From NCBI GenBank assembly GCA_035708165.1, contig DASSSZ010000005.1, positions 112,840-176,839 on the forward strand: a stretch of 64,000 nucleotides of DNA, read 5' to 3'. The position numbers were made by a program, and so were the translations under genes. Each line of letters opens with the position of its first letter. The stretch's first letter is position 1. The stretch is from Minisyncoccota bacterium. Its GTDB lineage: Bacteria; Patescibacteriota; Minisyncoccia; Phycocordibacterales; UBA2100. The notes under the pieces are model-generated. The model was not told the DNA's origin and did not search any database. It saw only the letters and a program-made list of their open reading frames with translations. Positions 1,840 through 64,000 of this stretch are shown here, in pieces.

Positions 1840-1935
1840 CTACTGCGCGAGCACGCGGTAGCGCTTCACTGAAGCAAGCCGCCGGATGACAAGCATCGCG
1901 ATACACGCGATAAGGACGATGGCACAGAACAGCAT
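1840..1935 (-). CDS. possible 31-aa hydrophobic small membrane peptide
   Basis: Hand translation gives MLFCAIVLIACIAMLVIRRLASVKRYRVLAQ. GGAGAG precedes the ATG. It is below the ORF-track size cutoff. Confidence 0.25.
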   Translation of the reverse strand: MLFCAIVLIACIAMLVIRRLASVKRYRVLAQ

Positions 1936-2022
1936 CCGCCTCTCCTATGGTGCGAACGGCTGCATGATACGGCTGCTGGCAGCTCGGTGCAATCCTTGAC
2001 CGGTCTGCTATAGTAGCCGCAT

Positions 2023-2096
2023 CCGCCCGTAGCTCAGCTGGTTAGAGCTCGGAGCTTATACCTCCGCGGTCCTTGGTTCGAATCCAAGCGGGCGGA
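2023..2096 (+). tRNA. tRNA-Ile, anticodon UAU (gene TAT)
   Basis: Hand-folded cloverleaf. Acceptor CCGCCCG pairs with CGGGCGG. D-arm is GCTC/GAGC and T-arm is CTTGG-TTCGAAT-CCAAG. Anticodon loop is CTTATAC. No CCA is encoded. Confidence 0.75.
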
Positions 2097-2193
2097 CACG
2101 CATTCGCAATTCGTACGAGCGGCACCAGGGTGGCGTGGGATATTCCGCCGCGGTCCTTGGTCGGATCAGTGGGCAGGCGTGCACCGCAAGGAT

Positions 2194-4509
2194 CTACTCC
2201 TGGTGCAGCGCCTGCGCGATCGCGCGCGTGCGTGCGCGCAAGGCAGGGTGCGCATCGAGCGCAGGATCGGCTGCGAGGACGGCTGCGGCTTCCGCGCGCG
2301 CTGCCTCGATCAGGCGCGGGTTCTTCAGCGCTTCCATGCCGAGATCTGAGACGCCCCACTGCGAACGACCGTAGAGGTCGCCGGCGCCACGGTTCGCGAG
2401 ATCTGCTTCCGCGAGGGCGAACCCGTCCGCGCTTCTCTCGAGCGCCCTGAGGCGGCTGAGCGATGCCTGCGAGCTCGTGTCCGGCAGGAGGTAGCAGAAG
2501 GCATCGAACGCGCTGCGCCGCACGCGGCCGCGCAGCTGGTGGAGCTGCGAGAGCCCGAAGCGCTCCGCGCCCTCGATCGCGATCACGGTCGCGTTGGGGA
2601 CATTCACGCCGACTTCGATCACCGACGTGGCTACGAGGATCTGCGTCTCATTCGCGGCGAATGCCGCCATTGCCGCGTCCTTCTCGTCCGGCTTCATCTT
2701 GCCGTGGATGAGCCCGACCGCGTATTCGGGGAAGACATCCGCAGCGAGGCGTTTCGCTTCCGCGATCGCGCTCTTCGCCTGGAGCGCCATCTCCTTGGCC
2801 GGATCCGGCTCATCGATGCGCGGGCAGACGATATACGCCTGCCGGCCTGCCGCGAGCTCGCGGCGGATAGCCGCGTACATGGCATCGCGCTCGCTCTTCT
2901 TCACGAGTGTCGTGGTGATTCCTGCGCGCTGCGGCGGCAGCTCGTCGAGGACGCTGATATCGAGGTCGCCGTAGATGGTCAAGGCGAGCGTGCGGGGGAT
3001 CGGGGTCGCGGTCATGCTGAGGAAATGCGGCGCGCCATTCGCCTGCGATCGGCGCGCTTCCTCGCTGCGGCCCACCTGCGCCTCGGCTACAGCCCGCCGG
3101 TGCGCATTCTTCGGCGCATTCCCCGCGCCTCGAACCGCATCCGATTCCGGACGGATTGAATTCTTCTGCGCGAGCGCCTGTCTCTGCCGCGTCCCGAACC
3201 GATGCTGCTCATCCACGATCGCGTAGGCGAGGTTGCGGAACTTCACCGTCTTCTGGATCAAGGCGTGCGTGCCGACGACCATCGCGATCTCGCCTCCGGC
3301 GACCCATTTGAGGAGCTGCGCGCGGGAGATCTTCGTCGGCTCGGTGCGATTCACCTTCGAGGGGTACTTCCAGCAGCCGCTCCCGGTGATGAGGGCGAGC
3401 GAGATCGGGAGCTCCTTGAAGTACTCGATGAACGAGCGGAAGTGCTGCCCGGCGAGGATCTCGGTCGGCGCCATGTAGGCGACCTGCAGGGTCCCGCTCT
3501 CGCGCCCGGCCGGGCGGCTGGTAACCGCGGCGTAGCTCGTCACGGCGGCGACGGCAGTCTTGCCGGCGCCCACGTCGCCCTCGAGGAGGCGCGCCATGGG
3601 GTGCGGCTTCCGGAAATCCGCGAAGATCTCGGCGATCGCGCGCTTCTGCGCGCCGGTGAGCGCGTAGGGGAAGGTCGCGGCGAATCGCGCCGCCTGCGCC
3701 TCATCGGCATCGATCGCAGGCGCGCGCATCGCATCGTTCTCGCCGCGCTCGAGCCGCTTGCTCGCCTGGATCACGAAGATCTCCTCGAACGCGAAGCGCT
3801 TCCGCGCGGCCTCGGCGTCGCGCAGGTTCTGCGGCGTGTGCATATAGATGAGCGCAGCGGGAAGCGCGGGGAGATGCAGCTTCTCGGCGACATCCGCCGG
3901 GATCGGGTCGTCGAGCGTATCCTGCAGGCCCGCTTCGAAGAGGCGCCGCACGGCATGGTAGAACCATCTGCTCGTGATGCCCTTCGTCTCCGGATAGACG
4001 GGGTAGAGCGTATCGTCCCCATCCGGTTCTCCGAGCAGGGGGGCGGGGATCGCCGAGCGCGAGATCGGCTCGATCTCCGGGTTCGTGATGTAGGGCTTGT
4101 CCTTGCCGGCGACGGTGCCGGTGAGCCGGACAGGGACGCCCATGGGCACCATCTTCGCGATATACGGCTGGTTGAACCACAGCACCTTGATCCTGCCGGT
4201 GCCATCCTCGAAGTAGCCTTGCGCCACGTTGCGCTTGCTCTTCCAGAGCTTCTTCGCTTCGAGCCTGCTCAGCTGCCCGTAGAGCGTGACGTGCTGCCCG
4301 CTCTCTAGCGCGGCGACGCTGCCGCCCTCGCCTGCGCGCTCATGCCGGACAGGGAAGTGGCGCAGCAGGTCCTCGAGCGTGACGAGCCCCAGGCGCTTGA
4401 GCGCGCTCTGCTGCACCGGCGTCAGCCGGAACTGCTGGATGATCGGATCCGTCGCGCGCATGCGGGCAGTATACCCGCTAGAGGAAGATGCGTGCGAGAC
4501 GGATGTCAT
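2194..4509 (-). CDS. recG: ATP-dependent DNA helicase RecG
   Basis: 771-aa ORF with an N-terminal wedge region, GDVGAGKT Walker A and a DEQHRFG-type DExH box, plus helicase C-terminal motifs. Confidence 0.9.
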   Translation of the reverse strand: MTSVSHASSSSGYTARMRATDPIIQQFRLTPVQQSALKRLGLVTLEDLLRHFPVRHERAGEGGSVAALESGQHVTLYGQLSRLEAKKLWKSKRNVAQGYFEDGTGRIKVLWFNQPYIAKMVPMGVPVRLTGTVAGKDKPYITNPEIEPISRSAIPAPLLGEPDGDDTLYPVYPETKGITSRWFYHAVRRLFEAGLQDTLDDPIPADVAEKLHLPALPAALIYMHTPQNLRDAEAARKRFAFEEIFVIQASKRLERGENDAMRAPAIDADEAQAARFAATFPYALTGAQKRAIAEIFADFRKPHPMARLLEGDVGAGKTAVAAVTSYAAVTSRPAGRESGTLQVAYMAPTEILAGQHFRSFIEYFKELPISLALITGSGCWKYPSKVNRTEPTKISRAQLLKWVAGGEIAMVVGTHALIQKTVKFRNLAYAIVDEQHRFGTRQRQALAQKNSIRPESDAVRGAGNAPKNAHRRAVAEAQVGRSEEARRSQANGAPHFLSMTATPIPRTLALTIYGDLDISVLDELPPQRAGITTTLVKKSERDAMYAAIRRELAAGRQAYIVCPRIDEPDPAKEMALQAKSAIAEAKRLAADVFPEYAVGLIHGKMKPDEKDAAMAAFAANETQILVATSVIEVGVNVPNATVIAIEGAERFGLSQLHQLRGRVRRSAFDAFCYLLPDTSSQASLSRLRALERSADGFALAEADLANRGAGDLYGRSQWGVSDLGMEALKNPRLIEAARAEAAAVLAADPALDAHPALRARTRAIAQALHQE

Positions 4510-23625: not shown

Positions 23626-23712
23626 GGAGACGTGGCTGAGTGGTCGAAGGCACCTCACTGCTAACGAGGCGGGGTCTCAAAGCCCCCCAGGGTTCGAATC
23701 CCTGCGTCTCCG
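23626..23712 (+). tRNA. tRNA-Ser, anticodon GCU (class II, long variable arm)
   Basis: Acceptor GGAGACG pairs with CGTCTCC. Anticodon loop is CTGCTAA. Long variable arm GGGGTCTCAAAGCCCC. T-arm is CAGGG-TTCGAAT-CCCTG. Discriminator is G. No CCA is encoded. Confidence 0.85.
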
Positions 23713-23780
23713 CAAAAATAATGAGGGCGAAGCGTCAGCTCCGCCCGATTATATTTTTGCCGGAGACGCAGGGATTCGAA
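23707..23780. repeat. 74-nt structured repeat, copy 1; it starts inside the tRNA-Ser 3' end and ends with an inverted copy of the tRNA T-arm/acceptor (ggagacgcagggattcgaa)
   Basis: ctccgcaaaaataatgagggcgaagcgtcagctccgcccgattatatttttgccggagacgcagggattcgaa. Nested palindromes: caaaaataat/attatttttg and gagggcg/cgccc. Confidence 0.7.
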
Positions 23781-23879
23781 AGCCGCAGCCCCGTGGAGCG
23801 GGGCGAGGCGGGGTCGCGAACGCTTGCGGGGTTCCGAGCCGGAGGCGAAGGAACCCGTCAAGCGATTCGTGACCGAATC

Positions 23880-23952
23880 CTCCGCAAAAATAATGAGGGC
23901 GAAGCGTCAGCTCCGCCCGATTATATTTTTGCCGGAGACGCAGGGATTCGAA
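23880..23952. repeat. structured repeat, copy 2 (identical 73 nt), preceded by a degenerate T-arm fragment (cgaatcc)
   Basis: Exact direct repeat of copy 1, 173 nt downstream. The same peptide string KIMRAKRQLRPIIFLPETQGFE appears in two spurious ORFs. Confidence 0.7.
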
Positions 23953-41758: not shown

Positions 41759-41829
41759 AGCGGGGTGGAGGAGCGGTACCTCACGAGGCTCATAACCTCG
41801 GGACCCTGGTTCGAATCCAGGCCCCGCAA
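41759..41829 (+). tRNA. tRNA-Met, anticodon CAU, initiator-like (unpaired A1•A72)
   Basis: D-arm GAGG/CCTC. Anticodon stem CGAGG/CCTCG with loop CTCATAA. T-arm CCTGG-TTCGAAT-CCAGG. Acceptor AGCGGGG/CCCCGCA leaves positions 1:72 unpaired, as in bacterial initiators. Confidence 0.65.
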
Positions 41830-42190
41830 CAAGCAAACGAGAACCCGGCGCATGCCGGGTTCTCGTTTGCGCGGCGCGGGGAAGAAGGCAGCCTGCGCTG
41901 CCTTCGCCTGGATCCGAACAGGCGGAGCCGTATCGCGCGCAGCGAAGCGAGCACGATCGGCGAGCCCGGGGAGGAAGTCCTTAACGAGCGGAGCGAGTTT
42001 AGGAACTTGACCCTCGAATCCAGGCCCCGCAACAAGGAAACACGAGCGGCCATTCGGCCGCTCGCGTTCTTCGTATTTCTCGTAGGTGCGGGCAGGTGCC
42101 GTCCGGAGTCGACTTTCCAGGCCCACAACTGCTGCTCCACCCTCCAATAGCAACGATCCGATAGGCAAGCCTATCGGATCGTTGCTTATG

Positions 42191-42264: not shown

Positions 42265-42483
42265 ATTGAAACTGGGTCGCAGGTCTCCCGCAGCGGGGCG
42301 GAATGACTATAGCATAACCATGCCCCGCGAACACATCCGCATCAGGTGGATGCGAACGATGCGATTGTAGCAGAAAAAGCTTCCCGTGTCGTGTGCCGAG
42401 CGGCCATCCTGGCGGCCGCTCTACTGCGTGCACCACGTGCCGCGGGTACGGCTCTGGCGGGCGCGTCCGCCCTTGGTCTTGTG

Positions 42484-42557
42484 TGTCGGGGGTGGGGCAT
42501 GATCCCACGACCTTAGCGTTATGAATGCTACGCTCTAACCAGCTGAGCTACCCCGAC
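42484..42557 (-). tRNA. tRNA-Met (elongator) or tRNA-Ile2, anticodon CAU
   Basis: Reverse complement has a fully paired acceptor GTCGGGG/CCCCGAC, anticodon loop TTCATAA and T-arm GTGGG-ATCATGC-CCCAC (unusual T-loop). Confidence 0.7.
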
Positions 42558-45800: not shown

Positions 45801-45873
45801 GCCACCTTAGCTCAGTTGGTAGAGCGACGCACTCGTAACGCGTAGGTCCCCAGTTCAATCCTGGGAGGTGGCT
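45801..45873 (+). tRNA. tRNA-Thr, anticodon CGU
   Basis: GCCACCT-TA-GCTC..GAGC-G-ACGCA-CTCGTAA-CGCGT-AGGTC-CCCAG-TTCAATC-CTGGG-AGGTGGC-T. Confidence 0.9.
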
Positions 45874-45950
45874 CAAAGAGATTCATCAGATCCATTCGCT
45901 CCGATTCGGAGCTCCAGGGGTGGAGGGTGATGCGAGCGCGCGCAGCATCG

Positions 45951-45997
45951 CCCACTCGTACCTCACGGTGCCAGTTCAATCCTGGGAGGTGGCTCAA
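45951..45997 (+). pseudogene. partial tRNA-Thr(CGU) duplicate (anticodon-loop-to-3'-end fragment)
   Basis: cccactcgtacctcacggtgccagttcaatcctgggaggtggctcaag. The last 27 nt are identical to the 3' end of the intact tRNA ~100 nt upstream. The 5' part is degenerate. Confidence 0.6.
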
Positions 45998-57569: not shown

Positions 57570-57640
57570 TGCCGGATCGTCTAATGGTAGGACAACGGAT
57601 TCTGGCTCCGTTTATCTAGGTTCGAGTCCTAGTCCGGCAG
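57570..57640 (+). tRNA. tRNA-Gln, anticodon CUG
   Basis: TGCCGGA-TC-GTCT-AATGGTA-GGAC-A-ACGGA-TTCTGGC-TCCGT-TTAT-CTAGG-TTCGAGT-CCTAG-TCCGGCA-G. Confidence 0.85.
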
Positions 57641-57715
57641 CAGCTTAGTTTAGTATCGAAGGACCTAGAGGGGTATAAATGCTTCTGTTTCTACTCACCC
57701 CCCGAAAGGCCTATA

Positions 57716-60529
57716 ATGTATGGGTTGCCCATTATGGATTCTTACAAGTATGGGTCTAAATGGCGTAGGTGGGATTTGCACCTACATACACCAGAAACCC
57801 TAAAAGAAGATCAGTACACTGGAACGACGCCCGAGGAAAAGTGGGAGAATTTTTGCAATGATATAAACTCCACCGACGCTGAAGTATCGGTCGTGGGCGT
57901 AACCGACTATCTCCTCATCGATAACTACAGGAAATTCCACTCCTTCATCGATTCAGGGAAGATCACCAAGAAATTCGACCTTGTCATCCCAAACATCGAG
58001 CTTCGGCTTACCCCGGTGACCGGAAGCGGGACAGCCTTGAACCTCCACCTATTAATCGATCCTGCGTTCGTGGACCAGCTCGAGTCCCGCATTTACTCAA
58101 AACTCAAAATCAAAAGCGGCACGACGGAATACACCGCTCTTCGGGCTGACTTGATTCGTCTCGGTAAGACGATAGATGCGGCAGCTTCAGACGACGTCGC
58201 GTACAAGAAAGGAGCCGAGCAGTTCGTCATCGATTTCGATACCCTCAAAGGAGTCTTTGATAACGATCCCGACCTGCGTAACCACTGCCTCATTGTGGTG
58301 GCTAACAGCTCGCATGATGGAGCCACGGGTGTAACGCACCACGCAAGCTTCTTCACGGCTACCGGCTCGAGCCTCGATACTAAGCGACAGGCGATTTACA
58401 AATTTGTTGACGCTATATTCTCCGCTAATCCTAGCGACCGTACATACTTCCTCGGTAAGTCTTCCAGCGATACACGCGACATCGTCATCGACAAGTGCGG
58501 AAGTCTCAAGCCGTGCGTGCACGGATGCGATGCGCATACTAACGCGAAGATCTTTAAGCCGGATCAAAATCGATATTGCTGGATAAAGGCGAATCCTACG
58601 TTCGAGGGCCTACGACAAATCCTATTCGAGCCGGAGGAGCGCATCTGCGTTCAAGAGCTACAGCCGGATGAGAAGGAGCTTTATCGCGTTATCGACAAGG
58701 TGAAGCTGACCGATGCGAATTTCACTGCCGAGCCGCTCGAACTCAATCCGAATCTGAACGTAATTATCGGCAGCCGCTCATCAGGAAAAACGACGCTGCT
58801 TAACAGCATTGCTAAAGCGGTAGACGTATCTGAATACGAGCTGCGTCATAAAGATTCCCCGCCCATAAAGGAACCTCCAAGCGCAAACGTGTTCTGGCTC
58901 GACGGCGCGGAAAGCGGTGCTGCAGAAACGCAGAAAGGCATTACCTACATACCTCAAAACTACATAAACAGCCTCGCCGAAGCGACCGAGGAAAATTCGC
59001 CCATACTTGAGATCGCCGAGAATGCGCTCTTCGACAGCACAGGCGGCATTGCTCAGGAAAGGAAGGATTTAAATCTCAAAATCGAGCAACTTAACCGCAC
59101 CATCGGTAACGACGTCTACCAGCTTTTTGTTACCCGGAAGCAGATCGCCGAGCAGAAGGAGAAGATCAAAAAGATCGGCGACAAAAAAGGTATAGAGGAG
59201 CAAATCAAGAAAGTCGAAGCCGAAATCGCGAAGCTTCAAAAGGACCTTACCAAAGCTGAGGCTGCTACTTTAAAGAAGCTCCGTGAAGAGTATGCGGACA
59301 ATAAAAAGCAAATCGAGACCATTACTGCTGATGTCGAGACGCTGACCGAGGAAACCGCTGATGTCGAAAGGGGTGCCAGCTTTTTTGAGGAAAGATCGCT
59401 CAGCTTGAAATCCGAGGAGCTGTCACGAGAGCTTGGCGAATTCACTGGCAAGCTCCAGGATGAATACCTGCAAAAGTACGTAGCGTTCGTTAATAGGAAA
59501 AAGGAGGAGCTGGCCAAGGAAAAGAAAAAACTCGAGGAAGACAATAAGAAAATACTCGACAACAACAAGGTCCTTATTGATAAGGCAAAGCAGAACACGG
59601 CCGCCGATCAGAAAGTGAAGGAGAAGGAGGCTCAGGACAAAAAGCTCGCGGAAATATCGTCGGCAGAGAAGGCGCTCAAGACCAGCGAGGATGCGCTATT
59701 GGCCACGCTCACAAAAATCGTTCTGGCGCACAAGGAGCGCTCTAACGCCCGACATGCCTTCGTCGCGAAAGCAACCGGAGATCTGGAAGGGATCGAGTAC
59801 CGCGCAGTGGTGGGGATCGACACGGTGAAGCTCGATAAGTTCATGACGGATTTCGTGAACTTCCACAACTCAACCGGCGCACGTACCCAGCTCAATGCGA
59901 TTCCTGGCTATAAAACGGGCGAGGACACGGATGTTTCGACTCTGATAAAAAACGACAACATTAAGACAACCGCCGAACTTATTCTTAGCGATACCTTGAA
60001 GCTTAAAGCCGGCATCGATTTGCAGCGCGCCATCGAGGGACTGTTCGGCGACTTTGAATTCATCAACTACTCTCTCAAATATGAGGGCGACAACTACCCT
60101 GAAATGACCCCAGGCAAGAAATCTCTCGTCGTATTAAAGCTGCTCGTCGAATCCAGCGAGGATAAATATCCGATTCTCATAGACCAGCCAGAGGACGATC
60201 TCGATAGCCGTTCAATATCGGGCGAAATCGTCGATTTCTTACGCTCCAAAAAGAAGGAGCGACAGATTATCCTCGTCACACATAACGCGAACATTGCTAT
60301 CAAGGCAGATGCGGAGGAGATCATTGTCGCCAACCGTCACTCTACGCAGCATCCGAACAAGAATGCTGTCATGTTTGATTACACGACAGGCGCTATCGAG
60401 ACGAGCTTCGTAAATCCGTCTGCCGCATTTTCTCTTGACAAAATGGGTATGCGCGAGCATGCATGTGAACTTCTGGAAGGTGGTGAGGAAGCGTTCGAGA
60501 ATCGGAAGAATAAATATAATCTAAAGTAA
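57716..60529 (+). CDS. PHP-domain phosphoesterase fused to an SMC/OLD-like ABC ATPase (single-protein anti-phage defense candidate, Ppl-like architecture)
   Basis: N-terminal PHP motifs (WDLHLHTPET, ...SSHDGATGVTHHASF, CVHGCDAHT). ABC ATPase with Walker A IIGSRSSGKTTLLNSI, a ~250-aa coiled-coil insertion, Walker B/D-loop ILIDQPEDDLD and H-loop LVTHNAN. A TATAAT box lies 6 nt upstream. Confidence 0.8.
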   Translation: MYGLPIMDSYKYGSKWRRWDLHLHTPETLKEDQYTGTTPEEKWENFCNDINSTDAEVSVVGVTDYLLIDNYRKFHSFIDSGKITKKFDLVIPNIELRLTPVTGSGTALNLHLLIDPAFVDQLESRIYSKLKIKSGTTEYTALRADLIRLGKTIDAAASDDVAYKKGAEQFVIDFDTLKGVFDNDPDLRNHCLIVVANSSHDGATGVTHHASFFTATGSSLDTKRQAIYKFVDAIFSANPSDRTYFLGKSSSDTRDIVIDKCGSLKPCVHGCDAHTNAKIFKPDQNRYCWIKANPTFEGLRQILFEPEERICVQELQPDEKELYRVIDKVKLTDANFTAEPLELNPNLNVIIGSRSSGKTTLLNSIAKAVDVSEYELRHKDSPPIKEPPSANVFWLDGAESGAAETQKGITYIPQNYINSLAEATEENSPILEIAENALFDSTGGIAQERKDLNLKIEQLNRTIGNDVYQLFVTRKQIAEQKEKIKKIGDKKGIEEQIKKVEAEIAKLQKDLTKAEAATLKKLREEYADNKKQIETITADVETLTEETADVERGASFFEERSLSLKSEELSRELGEFTGKLQDEYLQKYVAFVNRKKEELAKEKKKLEEDNKKILDNNKVLIDKAKQNTAADQKVKEKEAQDKKLAEISSAEKALKTSEDALLATLTKIVLAHKERSNARHAFVAKATGDLEGIEYRAVVGIDTVKLDKFMTDFVNFHNSTGARTQLNAIPGYKTGEDTDVSTLIKNDNIKTTAELILSDTLKLKAGIDLQRAIEGLFGDFEFINYSLKYEGDNYPEMTPGKKSLVVLKLLVESSEDKYPILIDQPEDDLDSRSISGEIVDFLRSKKKERQIILVTHNANIAIKADAEEIIVANRHSTQHPNKNAVMFDYTTGAIETSFVNPSAAFSLDKMGMREHACELLEGGEEAFENRKNKYNLK

Positions 60530-61798
60530 AATTAGGTTTTTATTTTCCAGCTGTAGTTGGGATTTCAGGCAAGTGAGAAGATCTCGCCTCTCAAATATCG
60601 ACCCTTCGGTTAGCAGGTACTTCGCGTAGTTGCGAATATCGGCGTCCTTCACAGAATAATTCTCGTCTGCCTTGCCCATAATCCCTGAATGGAACTTCTT
60701 ATGCCGCTCAATCTCAGCCTCGAGCTTTTTCTTGATACCAGAGCGGTCAAGATCTATCTGGTCAATAATTTCCGTTAGTTGCGAGATAAGGACCTTCTCC
60801 TCAATGTAGCCTTCTTTGCAGTTGATATTCCGTGAGCGAGTGCAACCATAGTAGATGTACTTGGCGATCGAACCGTCCTTCAGGGTCTTGAATTTCTCTT
60901 GGGCCGTCACACCGGATCCGCAGGTTCCACAGGAGAGCAAACGAGTGAAAGCGAACTCTTTGTTTTTGCCTCGGGCTTTGATTTGAAGGTGAAGCTGCTT
61001 CTGCACCTCTTCGAAAAGTTCTCTGGATATGAGTGGCGTATGCTTACCCTGGAACCATCGGCCGCTGTTCTTGGGGTATTCAAAAGTACCGTAGTAGAAG
61101 TGGTTATTGAGAATGACGTATACGTTGCTCAGAGTTAGAGGTTTGCCGGTACGGGTAACGAATTTGATTTCCTTGAGCCAGCGATATACTTTCCTACCAC
61201 TCCAGCCTTCATTGGCTACTTTCTGAAAGAGTTCCTTCATAACAGGGGCTCGATCAGGATCTACGAACACCACGCCTTTCTGATCCTTATTTTTTGAATT
61301 GAGATAACCGGTTGGGGCTACTGAAGGCCAGAGGCCGAGCTCGCACTTGGTTTTGAGCCCGCGCTTCACATTGATGCTCTTGTTGTCGTTCTCCAGCTTC
61401 GCCTGGCTACCAAGGATCATGAGAAGGAACTTCTCATTGGGGTTGTTAGTGAAGCGTTGACTGTAAGTACGAATTTCAATGAGCTTCTTCTGGTCGAAGA
61501 GATCCACGATCGCCCCAAGGTCGCCGGCATTGCGGGATAGACGGTCCGGATGCCACACCAAGATCCCATTGAATTTACCCTCCCGAATATTGAGAAGGAG
61601 CTGGTTGAACACAGGCCGCTGGCCGGCATCCTTTGCGGAGTGCGATTCTCGGTACATATCGACCACATTCAGTCCGTCTCGCTGCGCTAAGGCCAACATC
61701 TCCTTAAGCTGGGAATCTATCGAAAGCGCCTGTTTTTCCTCGGCTTCGCTCGATTTTCGGGCGTACAGGCAGTACCTGACTGGCTCCTGGTTTTCCAT
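60521..61798 (-). CDS. large serine recombinase (serine integrase)
   Basis: Resolvase catalytic N-terminus VRYCLYARKSSEAEEKQALSIDSQ (nucleophile Ser). Recombinase domain. Zinc-ribbon CGTCGSGV...YYGCTRSRNINC plus a coiled coil. The start could alternatively be 61843. Confidence 0.85.
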   Translation of the reverse strand: MENQEPVRYCLYARKSSEAEEKQALSIDSQLKEMLALAQRDGLNVVDMYRESHSAKDAGQRPVFNQLLLNIREGKFNGILVWHPDRLSRNAGDLGAIVDLFDQKKLIEIRTYSQRFTNNPNEKFLLMILGSQAKLENDNKSINVKRGLKTKCELGLWPSVAPTGYLNSKNKDQKGVVFVDPDRAPVMKELFQKVANEGWSGRKVYRWLKEIKFVTRTGKPLTLSNVYVILNNHFYYGTFEYPKNSGRWFQGKHTPLISRELFEEVQKQLHLQIKARGKNKEFAFTRLLSCGTCGSGVTAQEKFKTLKDGSIAKYIYYGCTRSRNINCKEGYIEEKVLISQLTEIIDQIDLDRSGIKKKLEAEIERHKKFHSGIMGKADENYSVKDADIRNYAKYLLTEGSIFERRDLLTCLKSQLQLENKNLILL

Positions 61799-61911
61799 AC
61801 AACACAACACATGCCCGAAGCCGGGGAAGAAGTCCATACCCAAGCTGGTGGTAAGAAATACGGCTTTAAACCAAGGCGATTTCGTGATAAAATCATGAAA
61901 ATCCTTATTTT

Positions 61912-63510
61912 ATGGCCACGTTGAATTGGATCGGAAAAGAGGCGGTGGCAAACCACGACAAAGAGGTGCCTTTCAAGTTGCTTGAGAAAGTCCCGAGCGC
62001 ATCCGTCGGTAAGGAATCAAAGAATCTCGTCATTCACGGCGACAATCTAGAAGCACTTAAAGCACTTTTGCCTTTCTATCAAGGCGAGGTTAAGTGCATT
62101 TATATTGATCCTCCATACAACACCGGAAACGAGGATTGGGCATACAACGATAATGTAAGTTCTCCCAAAATTCGAGAGTGGATCAAGAAAACTGTGGGGC
62201 GAGAAGGGGAAGACCTCACTAGACATGACAAGTGGCTTTGCATGATGTATCCCCGTCTTAAACTCCTTCGTGATCTTTTACGGGATGACGGGGTCATATT
62301 TGTCAGTATCGATGACAATGAACAGCACCACCTCAAGATACTGATGGATGAGATTTTCACAGCTCGGAATTTTATTGGGCAGATTACCGTCGTTGGAAAC
62401 CCACGAGGTAGAGATTATGGTGGAATTGCGCGCATGCACGACTACCTTCTTGTTTACTCGAAGGAGTTTGGAAAGGCAGATATCAACAACTTGAACGATC
62501 CTGATAAGGAGTTTCCTTTTGAGGACAGCAGGGGAGGTTTTGAGATTCGCGAGCTACGCAATCGCAATATTGCTTTCCATATAGGGAATAGGCCTAATCT
62601 TCATTACCCCTTTTATGTCAATCCAAAGAAGAAAGACGAGAATGGTTTTTTTGAGATCTCGCTTGAGAAAAAGAGTGGCTGGACTGAAGTTTTTCCGAAA
62701 GAATCTCAGGGATTTAAGACTGTTTGGCGTTGGGGGAAAGCGCGTTCTCAGCAAAATCTGAATACTGAAATTGTTGCAAAGAAGATGATGGATGGTGGTT
62801 ATCAGATTGTTGAAAAGTATCGTGAGAGAACACGGATGGCTCGATCTGTCTGGTGGGACAAAGATGATAATACTGAAAAAGGAACGCTGGAGGTTAAGAA
62901 TCTTTTTGATGGCAAGAAAGTGTTCAATTTCCCTAAGTCCATGGAAATGGTACGGAAGGTGGTTGAGATGGGTACTGGACCAGACGACATTGTCCTTGAT
63001 TCGTTTGCGGGATCGGGTACAACAGGCCACGCTGTGCTCGATTTAAACAAAATGGATGGCGGACACCGTCGCTTTATTTTGGTTGAAATGGAAGATGACG
63101 TCGTGAAGAAAATCACTGCTGAAAGGATCAAGAAAGCTATAAAAAAGTACGACTATGACGGAGGCTTTGAATATTGCGAGCTCGCTTCCGCCCTTTTTGA
63201 TCAGAATGGATTGATAAATGAGTCGTGTTCATATGCCGACTTGGCTTCTTACATTTTCTTCACCGAGACGCAAACAAACGTCGATAAAAAAGCAATCAAA
63301 AATCCATTCGTTGGTGAGAGTGGCGGGATTTCCTACTACCTCGTTTACGCTGGCCGTGGAAAAAATGACTTAACTCGAGCTTCACTCAGCAAGCTCAAGA
63401 TCGCCGGTCCTGCAGTCGTATATGCTGATCGTTGTCTTGTGGACGAGGATGAACTGAAGGAGAAAGGTATTACCTTCAAACAGATCCCGTACGAGATAAC
63501 AATCTACTAA
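61912..63510 (+). CDS. mod: Type III restriction-modification system methyltransferase (Mod), N6-adenine type
   Basis: Motif IV DPPYN, motif I FAGSGTTG and Mod-like overall architecture. 532 aa. Confidence 0.9.
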   Translation: MATLNWIGKEAVANHDKEVPFKLLEKVPSASVGKESKNLVIHGDNLEALKALLPFYQGEVKCIYIDPPYNTGNEDWAYNDNVSSPKIREWIKKTVGREGEDLTRHDKWLCMMYPRLKLLRDLLRDDGVIFVSIDDNEQHHLKILMDEIFTARNFIGQITVVGNPRGRDYGGIARMHDYLLVYSKEFGKADINNLNDPDKEFPFEDSRGGFEIRELRNRNIAFHIGNRPNLHYPFYVNPKKKDENGFFEISLEKKSGWTEVFPKESQGFKTVWRWGKARSQQNLNTEIVAKKMMDGGYQIVEKYRERTRMARSVWWDKDDNTEKGTLEVKNLFDGKKVFNFPKSMEMVRKVVEMGTGPDDIVLDSFAGSGTTGHAVLDLNKMDGGHRRFILVEMEDDVVKKITAERIKKAIKKYDYDGGFEYCELASALFDQNGLINESCSYADLASYIFFTETQTNVDKKAIKNPFVGESGGISYYLVYAGRGKNDLTRASLSKLKIAGPAVVYADRCLVDEDELKEKGITFKQIPYEITIY

Positions 63511-63514
63511 TCCT

Positions 63515-64000
63515 ATGAAGCTCAAGCGTTATCAAACAAACGCAATAGAAACGCTGGATCAATTCCTGGATCTCGTCAGGAAGATGAAGCCGCGGCATGC
63601 CTTCAATGAGATAACGGAGCAGGTCTACAACCATGAGTGGTTCGGGGACGTACCTTTTGTGTGTATTCGTATCCCCACGGGCGGCGGAAAAACGTTCGTT
63701 GGCTGCAAGGCAGTCGAACGGATCATGAGCACAGTCCTCCAGAACAAGATGGACACCGGCATTGTGATGTGGTTCGTACCATCAGACTCCATCAAGACTC
63801 AAACGTTGAAGAAGTTCCGAGATCCTAAAGATGCCCACTACCAAGCGCTGAACGAAGCATTCGGGACGAAGTTCAAAGTCTTTTCAAATGAAGAGGCTTT
63901 GACAATTTCGCCGGAGGACGTGACGAATAATCTCTGCGTTATCGTCGCCAGTCTCGATGCATTCAGGAAAGACGCGTCTATTCAGAAAAAGTACAAGGTC
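63515..64000 (+). CDS. res: Type III restriction enzyme Res subunit (helicase/ATPase), 3' end outside the window
   Basis: ATG 5 nt after the mod stop. Walker A IRIPTGGGKTFVG and the beginning of a DEAD-like helicase. Confidence 0.8.
   Translation, partial: MKLKRYQTNAIETLDQFLDLVRKMKPRHAFNEITEQVYNHEWFGDVPFVCIRIPTGGGKTFVGCKAVERIMSTVLQNKMDTGIVMWFVPSDSIKTQTLKKFRDPKDAHYQALNEAFGTKFKVFSNEEALTISPEDVTNNLCVIVASLDAFRKDASIQKKYKV

Follow-up and report, generated by a model that had tools for sequence, protein, structure and literature searches.

A tRNA-Ile(UAU) gene and a partial copy between ftsH and recG

The stretch of DNA analysed here, hereafter the window, comprises 64,000 nucleotides of contig DASSSZ010000005.1 from a Minisyncoccota bacterium assembly (GCA_035708165.1) and has a GC content of about 0.66. 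Near its start, the C-terminal part of ftsH (1-723) and recG (2194-4509, minus strand) enclose a gene for an isoleucine tRNA whose anticodon is UAU, tRNA-Ile(UAU), followed downstream by a degenerate partial copy of the same gene. This gene and its partial copy are the subject of the present work.

ARAGORN identified eight tRNA genes in the window and assigned the one at 2023-2097 (plus strand, anticodon at 2057-2059) to tRNA-Ile with the anticodon tat, in a canonical cloverleaf. The Rfam family RF00005 matched 2023-2096 with 66 bits (E = 3.9e-12; gathering score 29), in an alignment that covers the full length of the model and contains zero non-canonical pairs. A sequence-only reading of the window had described a tRNA-Ile gene in which the UAU anticodon is genomically encoded, and both analyses bear this out, the gene being a bona fide tRNA. 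Element by element, the gene reads CCGCCCG, TA, GCTC, AGCTGGTTA, GAGC, T, CGGAG, CTTATAC, CTCCG, CGGTC, CTTGG, TTCGAAT, CCAAG, CGGGCGG, A and C. The 7-nt anticodon loop, CUUAUAC (CTTATAC at 2054-2060), has T-A-T at positions 34-36 between U33 and A37; further features are the C1-G72 pair, U12-A23, C38 and the discriminator A73, and CCA is not encoded. A73, A35, U36, A37 and U12-A23 agree with the isoleucine identity elements of Escherichia coli.

In a repeat search, 2057-2077 and 2141-2161, which are 84 nt apart, were identical at 19 of 21 ungapped positions, and the exact 14-nt core at 2148-2161 had an expectation of 0.013 for the whole window and both strands. In a gapped local alignment with the tRNA, 2141-2174 corresponded to tRNA positions 34-71, with 30 matches, 4 mismatches and 3 gap positions in 37 columns. 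The score of 43 compares with a mean of 17.3 in shuffled sequences. As none of 2000 shuffles equalled it, and given the expectation of the 14-mer, chance similarity was rejected. The earlier reading had placed a copy of the T-arm region, with a 14/14-nt core, at about 2146-2168; the repeat is real and its core exact, but the copy is not confined to the T-arm: it begins at the anticodon TAT and reaches the 3' strand of the acceptor stem, so that all of the 3' half is represented. That strand reads CGGGCGG in the gene and GGGCAGG in the remnant. Because insertions and deletions in the T-loop destroy the T-arm, the partial copy is non-functional.

Distribution and conservation of tRNA-Ile(UAU)

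One genome per GTDB species was scanned with a pattern in which the sole fixed elements were the D-arm, the CTTATA loop, GGTC and the T-loop, and the taxonomic spread obtained in this way is a sample, not a census. The tRNA-Ile(UAU) gene was found in at least 120 species-representative genomes, at least 104 of which have names of the Patescibacteria or candidate phyla radiation (CPR) type. Among the matches listed, the remaining loci belong to metagenome-assembled genomes (MAGs) named 'bacterium' and to a few bins that are probably mislabelled. The closest of the listed genes are identical to that of the window at 73 (locus L037) and 72 (L054) of 75 positions, and the unusual CCGCCCG...CGGGCGG acceptor stem and the CUUAUAC loop are common to many of the listed relatives.

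Among the same matches, ftsH adjoins the tRNA gene in at least 57 loci (57/120) and lies just upstream on the same strand in at least 38 (38/120), and the exact order of the window, ftsH(+)/tRNA(+)/recG(-), recurs in at least 19 (19/120). Relatives reached instead through RecG homologues (63-69% identity) all have a tRNA-Ile(tat) gene near recG; L151 and L154 match the window in having it flanked by ftsH and recG. In an alignment of 70 distinct members of the family from Patescibacteria, 99.3% of the cloverleaf cells are paired, and 15 of 21 pairs show compensatory changes on both sides (366 cells). The covariation score was 0.69, compared with 0.15 in shuffles, and sliding the partners left 24-46% of the cells paired. 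As the search pattern fixed the anticodon and the D-arm, it is the acceptor, anticodon and T stems that are tested by this analysis.

Pairing and synteny together indicate that tRNA-Ile(UAU) is a gene under structural selection that is inherited at a conserved place. Its distribution indicates that the gene is ordinary for its lineage and that an encoded UAU is the usual state in the phylum. The earlier description of an encoded UAU as rare therefore fails within Patescibacteria, where the gene is widespread and often stands in the ftsH/tRNA/recG order, but its association with reduced genomes stands: the RecG of the window is 100% identical to a protein of a Candidatus Paceibacterota MAG. The next named RecG matches are from Minisyncoccia, the Patescibacteria group and Kaiserbacteria, and the window is accordingly taken as part of a high-GC Candidatus Paceibacterota (Patescibacteria/CPR) chromosome. 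A source in Bifidobacterium or another actinobacterium, to which the high GC and the literature had pointed, was rejected on account of these RecG names and of synteny.

A tRNA-Ile(TAT) gene was also observed on a contig labelled Flavobacterium (L015, 1519-1670), where it lies 38 nt from an inverted tRNA-Ile(GAT) gene that is identical to it except at position 34. This pair looks like a recent recruitment of a UAU decoder via a single anticodon mutation.

Decoding of AUA codons

In the core genes of the window, 13,111 codons in confident frames include 694 AUC, 19 AUA and 12 AUU. AUA is rare yet commoner than AUU, which is unusual at 66% GC. Three AUA codons are present in the gene for LigA, at positions where the aligned residues in the solved ligases of E. 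coli and T. filiformis are L/V, V/V and L. One of them comes directly behind the catalytic Lys of KxDG (KIDG in the window, KLDG in E. coli and KVDG in T. filiformis), and the positions are consistent with isoleucine.

As AUA is in use as a codon, a decoder is needed and tRNA-Ile(UAU), the obvious one, is predicted to be the AUA decoder of this organism. With UAU written in the gene, conversion of the cytidine of a CAU anticodon to lysidine would not be needed. The tRNA would be charged by isoleucyl-tRNA synthetase (IleRS), the gene for which, ileS, is not in the window; U34 would be in a state that prevents misreading of AUG, and tilS may be absent from the genome.

No TilS-like open reading frame (ORF) was found in the 64-kb window when almost every credible ORF was searched against Pfam, and a search for SGGxDS, the PP-loop motif, gave none either. 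In other phyla, tilS often lies just upstream of hpt-ftsH. The tilS-hpt-ftsH arrangement was not found upstream of ftsH in 10 relatives, where unrelated genes, encoding for example an S1-domain protein, YibE/F, DnaJ or phosphoglucomutase, are located. PP-loop ORFs in 0.97 Mb of the relatives' loci, a sample of about one genome-equivalent and too small to be informative, are QueC-like only. The CAU tRNAs of the window (n = 2) and of the relatives' loci belong to an initiator-like class and to one elongator class resembling tRNA-Met, and to none other.

The elongator-type tRNA(CAU) of the window (42483-42557, minus strand) has an A31-C39 mismatch and an odd T-loop, AUCAUGC, where A54 and U58 replace the usual U54 and A58. 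The A31 mismatch is also present in the matching tRNA(CAU) of L026, L089 and L030, and the sequence fits neither Met nor Ile2 decisively. The position of the AUA decoder just downstream of ftsH in Patescibacteria, compared with that of tilS upstream of ftsH elsewhere, may be a coincidence.

Published tRNA-Ile(UAU) genes come from nine species and include the tRNA-Ile2(UAU) of Mycoplasma mobile and the tRNA-Ile(TAT) genes of Bifidobacterium and Neorickettsia, and 371 unassigned TAT tDNAs were reported in metagenomes (Taniguchi 2013, PMC3575796). The tRNAscan-SE 2.0 paper gives 'Ile3(UAU)' for 17 genomes, and its supplementary table has no CPR member (PMC8450103). The Patescibacteria resemble M. 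mobile, Bifidobacterium and Neorickettsia in having a gene-encoded UAU tRNA-Ile in reduced genomes, and in the latter three it reads AUA without lysidine. Whereas the published genomes represent three clades, each with an isolated loss, the gene in Patescibacteria is phylum-wide and syntenic. For M. mobile it is established that tilS is absent, which type of IleRS is present and in what state U34 occurs; Patescibacteria are likened to it here from their tRNA genes. Literature searches found no paper linking lysidine or tilS with Patescibacteria or CPR, and the Patescibacteria rule of an encoded UAU seems not to have been described yet in the literature searched.

Nested tRNA halves in related loci

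Partial copies of the gene are common among the relatives, and their polarity is strict. Of 132 tRNA-Ile(tat) genes in the fetched loci, 24 have a 3' half within 350 nt downstream and 19 a 5' half upstream, and the reversed polarity was seen in 1 and 0 cases, respectively. The recurrent layout consists of an outer 5' half, an arm, a complete tRNA, a second arm and an outer 3' half, with up to three layers. In L046, for example, a 5' half (positions 1-38) is followed after 80 nt by the complete tRNA and, after a further 16 nt, by a 3' half starting at TATAC and a terminator. The order in L112 is 5'(A), 5'(B), complete C, 3'(B), 3'(A). The loci L019, where the 3' halves form two layers, L122, L123 and L127 are multilayered. 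In these relatives, the outer halves pair mutually and not with the inner gene, as in L010, where the outer acceptor GGGTGTG/CACACCC is self-pairing and the inner one is GGGCATG/CATGCCC.

The junctions are constant. The outer 5' part always ends in ...GAGCTTA(T)(A), the outer 3' part always starts with TATACC, and 2-4 nt around TA, in the anticodon loop, are common to both. The layered architecture is repeated at the same dinucleotide and in the same orientation. The right-junction pattern TATCGNAGNTATACCTCNNNGGTCCNNGGTTCGA gave 10 matches in metagenome contigs with GC contents of 0.34-0.57; 10 of 10 are nested, several are multilayered, and one nested contig holds an 'empty' pair of arms. In viral contigs, the same pattern had 0 matches. 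A phage origin of the unit formed by the arms and the inner tRNA, hereafter the cassette, was rejected on this ground and because phage tRNA-Ile(UAU) genes are of other sequence types. No paper describing nested tRNA halves was found in literature searches.

The promoter and terminator of the old gene flank the whole nest in L010, L046 and L076. Non-nested loci (L037, L054, L050 and L152) have a plain promoter and terminator without arms. Among the nearest relatives, L153 and L154 (RecG 65% and 63% identical to that of the window) contain an intact, full nest, L151 retains an arm stub and L152 has none; the nest state varies among them, and the structure is gained and lost. The outer halves in L153 are of the CCGCCCG type, as is the window gene. 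Inner and outer copies in L153 and L154 differ in the acceptor or T stems, which suggests that they are of different origins.

A third insertion sublocation in tRNA-Ile(UAU) was observed in Peribacteria (L051, L063 and L022), where 5' fragments broken in the D-loop (GGGCCAGTAGCTCAGTTGG|...) stand upstream of the intact gene in one to three repeats, and the same insert of ~75 nt follows every fragment.

Arms of the cassette

The left arm, from the outer 5' half to the inner tRNA, is ~20-35 nt long and the right arm, from the inner tRNA to the 3' half, ~36-46 nt. The arms are complementary and so extend the acceptor stem of the inner tRNA into a long hairpin, with the tRNA at its tip; for L019, folding of the complete unit gave -75 kcal/mol (z = -6.7). 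When a linker took the place of the tRNA, 15-25 inter-arm pairs formed in 11 of 14 cassettes, compared with 8-12 after shuffling of the right arm (z <= -2.2). The sequences of the stems differ between cassettes and the layout recurs, namely an outer stem, a small loop, a GC/GC step and an inner stem. The 2-bp GC/GC step is flanked by facing GA dinucleotides, which gives a GAGCGA internal-loop motif on both strands. The right arm ends in an unpaired 9-nt tail, (T)ATCG(A/T/G)AGA, that can pair with the CUUAU ending the 5' part. This arm family is conserved in genomes from 34% to 67% GC.

Rfam searches with the arms of eight nested loci (E <= 0.1) found no group I intron or other family; sub-threshold 'Plastid-ycf2' matches were antisense to the tRNA and were discarded. 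Neither a bulge-helix-bulge motif nor the group I splice-site rule was seen at the junctions by inspection, the inserts ending in A, C or G before TATAC and not as the group I U...G rule has it. Judged as a miniature inverted-repeat transposable element (MITE) of the IS630/Tc1 type, the cassette has TA at both junctions and complementary arms, but also the unpaired 9-nt tail. As regards dispersed copies, the right-arm motif occurs once in the window and, in ~1.2 Mb of fetched loci, only directly after tRNA-Ile(UAU).

In the window, the putative right arm is the 43-nt trailer between the tRNA and the partial copy (2098-2140, plus strand). Its first part, ACGCATTCGCAATTCGTACGAGCG (2098-2121), is identical to the right arm of L153 at 20 of 24 positions and lies at the same place, and it also matches the right arms of L154, L110, L125 and L127 (p <= 0.0005). 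The partial copy itself (2141-2178, plus strand) occupies the position of the outer 3' half in L153, L154, L110, L010, L046, L076 and L116 and, with its alignment to the tRNA, appears to be the decayed outer 3' half of a former tRNA-Ile(UAU). On the other side, the leader at the left-arm position (1970-2022, plus strand) contains a -10-like box, TATAGT, at 2010-2015, and no sigma-70 promoter was found in it by consensus scan.

Origin of the nested arrangement

The arrangement in the window probably consists of a working, lineage-typical tRNA and the displaced 3' half of an earlier gene that was split by an insertion carrying its replacement. An earlier tRNA-Ile(UAU) would have been split at the TA in its anticodon loop by an insertion of ~130-170 bp, a size taken from the well-kept relatives, that comprised the left arm, a complete tRNA-Ile(UAU) and the right arm. 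As such an insertion brings a full replacement tRNA, the loss of the essential resident gene would be tolerated, and the replacement would use the old promoter and terminator. Having the same anticodon loop, the new gene could be hit again, which would yield the onion-like series of 5' halves upstream and 3' halves downstream. We infer that the nest arose by insertion, as we do its mechanism of mobility. In the window, the decayed 3' half, the barely recognisable 5' half and the unpaired arms point to an old event.

A tyrosine integrase could have left the same trace in the window, if an element carrying a tRNA 3' half had integrated at the anticodon loop and its body had later been deleted except for 43 nt; the intact gene would then join a host 5' half to the 3' half of the element, and the 3' half of the host would be the displaced one. 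The copy runs from the anticodon loop to the 3' end, as att duplications do; in L027 an island of 825 nt with one gene separates the tRNA from an exact 39-nt 3' half, exact 3'-end repeats occur at three other tRNAs of the window, and a recombinase-bearing island adjoins its tRNA-Gln. Yet this model, which we consider improbable, predicts no upstream 5' halves, and these mirror the 3' halves in L010, L046, L076, L112, L116, L122, L123, L153 and L154. Moreover, the displaced 3' halves of L110, L010 and L123 are unable to pair with the 5' strand of the intact gene, which is therefore not a host/element chimera, and the 43-nt spacer is a conserved arm common to the fully nested relatives rather than a random leftover. 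No integrase was found between the repeats, which are separated by 43 nt only, or beside them, where the neighbours are recG and a gene for a 350-aa protein. A local tandem duplication of the segment from the anticodon to the 3' end plus spacer (84-nt period), with decay of the second copy, would account for the resemblance of the remnant to the 3' half of the adjacent gene (GGGCAGG and CGGGCGG), and in L014 the 3' half of tRNA-fMet has been duplicated along with its terminator. A duplicated spacer would then be expected after the remnant and none was seen, and such a duplication, very unlikely in our judgement, does not account for the 5' halves found upstream, for acceptor stems that disagree between inner and outer copies or for the conservation of the arms from 34% to 67% GC. 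Both the integrase scar and the tandem duplication would explain the window alone, and not the upstream halves, stem mismatches and conserved arm of its relatives.

Scarcely credible is a single functional gene in which the outer halves are the exons of a second tRNA-Ile(UAU), the arms and inner tRNA being removed as an intron. The insert does lie in the anticodon loop, a frequent site of group I introns in Patescibacteria (PMC13011429), the arms form a conserved hairpin with covarying stems and a tail, UAUCGAAGA, that can pair with the CUUAU of the 5' part, and a perfect cloverleaf can still be formed from the outer halves of L046, L010 and L123. Elsewhere, however, the outer halves decay, as seen from the T-loop indels in the window, the truncated 5' halves of L019 and L112, the mismatched stems of L125 and a 19-nt palindrome inside the D-arm of the outer half in L153. 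The arms have no Rfam ribozyme and the junctions lack the U...G of group I introns. Bacteria are not known to have a protein-based pathway of tRNA splicing. As to the intact gene itself, it would be a dispensable extra if it had been recently recruited or horizontally acquired, for instance from a phage, and were redundant with a tilS-dependent tRNA-Ile2(CAU). Both AUA systems occur together in some bacteria (Taniguchi 2013, PMC3575796), tRNA-Ile(UAU) genes are present on phage contigs, and recruitment does happen, the UAU gene of L015 differing from its GAU neighbour at position 34 only. Redundancy is nevertheless unlikely, given that the phage genes are of other sequence types with no nested junction among them, that synteny of the window gene and structural selection on it hold throughout the phylum, that AUA is used more than AUU, and that the CAU tRNAs of the window and the relatives' loci are only initiator-like or Met-elongator-like.

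Several known systems resemble the proposed insertion in part. Genes for tRNAs are reportedly used as integration sites by integrase-encoding elements, with sublocations in the anticodon loop and T-loop and a displaced 3' copy. These share with the cassette the anticodon stem-loop as the target, a direct 3' copy downstream and the retention of gene function, whereas the cassette has ~130-170 bp and no integrase, holds a whole tRNA, leaves a 5' half upstream and shares 2-4 nt (TA) between its junctions. The group I introns in the anticodon loops of tRNA genes of Patescibacteria (PMC13011429) occur in the same phylum and gene region and are likewise folded inserts with a tail pairing to the end of the 5' part; in contrast, the cassette has no ribozyme core, is too short, contains a complete tRNA and is flanked by 'exons' that decay. 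The split and permuted tRNA genes of Archaea, the functional halves of which are joined by a splicing endonuclease (reviewed in PMC4033280), are also broken at the anticodon loop and have complementary flanks, but the present halves are bacterial, flank a complete gene and decay.

Free-standing GIY-YIG homing endonucleases include the Seg proteins of phage T4, with SegB in a tRNA gene cluster. The most likely route for the proposed insertion would be repair of a homing-type break from an insert-bearing allele, with the outer halves serving as homology arms. Such repair would explain the host-type outer halves, the differing inner genes and the presence of one arm family in very different genomes, and break-repair spread as in homing would explain an insert flanked by the halves of its target. 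Alternatively, a small hairpin cassette may be inserted or transposed site-specifically, the crossover or duplication amounting to 2 nt. The enzyme would be supplied in trans, and the candidates are small GIY-YIG nucleases beside tRNA-Ile(UAU) in some relatives (Pfam PF01541, E = 1.7e-12), the genes for which lie beside or inside disrupted tRNA-Ile(UAU) copies, much as SegB of T4 lies in a tRNA gene cluster. In L051, GIY-YIG ORFs separate the current tRNA from an older, disrupted copy; in L114, the order is promoter, tRNA positions 1-17, GIY-YIG, complete tRNA; and in L029, it is tRNA, terminator, GIY-YIG, copy of the 3' end. The parallel with T4 is drawn from these genes, and it differs in that a nuclease gene is present neither in the anticodon-loop cassettes nor in the window.

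A number of observations weigh against the insertion of a replacement-carrying cassette as the origin of the arrangement. No GIY-YIG gene was found in the window, the anticodon-loop cassettes encode no enzyme, and the insertions linked to GIY-YIG genes are located in the D-loop or T-loop and not in the anticodon loop, so that these nucleases are a lead and not a proof. The inner tRNA keeps an intact target site, which simple homing with an 'immune allele' does not predict. In the window, the candidate outer 5' half, CCGCCTCTCCTATGGTGCGAACGGCTGCATGATA (1932-1969, plus strand), has the position of the outer 5' half in L153 and L154 and ends in ...ATGATA directly before the arm-like CGGCTGCTGG, but it would be very decayed, the local alignment of the tRNA 5' half with the 160 nt upstream being not significant (p = 0.15). 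The similarity of the left-arm start, TA|CGGCTGC..TG.GCAGC, to TA|CGGCGGCTAGTGAGCAGC in L153 is not significant either (p = 0.5), and folding of the window arms gives zero inter-arm pairs, the leader showing no pairing with the right arm. It is the right arm and the 3' half only that would place the window in the nested family, and it is conservation only that would make tRNA-Ile(UAU) the sole AUA decoder. The broader proposal, that the phylum reads AUA via an encoded UAU and that this essential single-copy gene hosts an undescribed selfish replacement-tRNA hairpin cassette of ~150 bp, which repeatedly overwrites it, leaves onion-like series of dead halves behind and moves foreign tRNA-Ile alleles between lineages, is accordingly put forward as tentative, with the balance slightly on the side of doubt.

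Other tRNA-associated repeats and neighbouring genes

Three other tRNA genes of the window are accompanied by duplications of their 3' ends, as the sequence-only reading had noted. The initiator-like tRNA-Met (41759-41830) has a 20-nt exact direct copy at 42014-42033, 183 nt after the gene, and tRNA-Thr(CGT) (45801-45874) a 25-nt exact direct copy at 45971-45995, 96 nt after the gene. Next to tRNA-Ser(GCT) (23626-23713), there are two exact copies of 20 nt, both inverted (23761-23780 and 23933-23952). The duplications at these three genes are not, as had been supposed, of the same kind as that of tRNA-Ile(UAU), since they start in the T-arm and are exact, whereas the Ile copy starts at the anticodon and is decayed. 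The Met and Thr repeats, exact direct copies of 20-27 nt from the T-loop to the 3' end, may represent a second family of T-loop mini-inserts or integration scars, and integrase-type events, as in L027 with its exact 39-nt repeats, probably explain these T-loop-to-end repeats.

The Met insert (41759-42035) contains an inverted T-arm-like piece, CCTGGATCCGAAC, and has TTGACC just before the copy; inserts built like those of Met and Thr (41759-42035 and 45801-45997) were also seen in L100, L102, L113 and L046. After tRNA-Ser(GCT), at 23705-23952, lies a palindromic unit of ~75 nt, the far arm of which is the inverted 3' end of the tRNA, CCGGAGACGCAGGGATTCGAA, and the whole unit is repeated 172 nt further on. 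GC-rich palindromes, CTGCCTGCCGGCAGGCAGG / CCTGCCCGC...GCAGGCGGG, occur in dead tRNA pieces or beside tRNAs in several Patescibacteria loci, namely inside the outer 5' half of L153, at 6160-6196 of L114 and near tRNAs in L038 and L050. They may be a small repeat resembling the repetitive extragenic palindromic (REP) type.

Between ftsH and tRNA-Ile(UAU), an ORF at 738-1790 encodes a 350-aa Ala/Pro-rich low-complexity protein with a coiled-coil-like C-terminus. It had no Pfam match and no relative in scans of genomes and metagenome contigs, and its sole exact match was one 2.5-kb Logan contig. Genes for a PIF1-like helicase and a FAD monooxygenase are further neighbours, and elsewhere in the window are a type IV pilus cluster, the genes ligA, gatA, queA, tgt and ftsEX, and those for F-type ATPase subunits and a release factor. 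Both the pilus cluster and the remaining gene content fit a Patescibacteria/CPR lineage.

After tRNA-Gln(CTG) (57570-57641), the GC content falls from ~0.65 to 0.45-0.51 (57570-64000). This region encodes an AAA/SMC-like ATPase (57620-60526), a large serine recombinase (60524-61909, minus strand), an N6/N4 DNA methylase (61891-63507) and a ResIII helicase (63500 onwards), and it looks like an integrated restriction or defence island. AUA and AUU are far commoner in it than in the core genes.

Implications

In bacteria, TilS and lysidine generally count as essential and nearly universal, and the published exceptions amount to a handful of genomes. Patescibacteria make up a large share of bacterial diversity. 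If true phylum-wide, decoding of AUA by an encoded UAU would change the picture of how the split between AUA and AUG is enforced, and of the reach of TilS as a marker and drug target. Nested insertion, if true, would be a new lifestyle inside an essential gene, in which the element brings a whole spare gene and relies neither on restoration of its target nor on splicing. For tRNA finders and annotators, it would mean that half-genes and duplicated pieces are to be expected around CPR tRNAs, and that the history of an inner tRNA may differ from that of the genome in which it resides.

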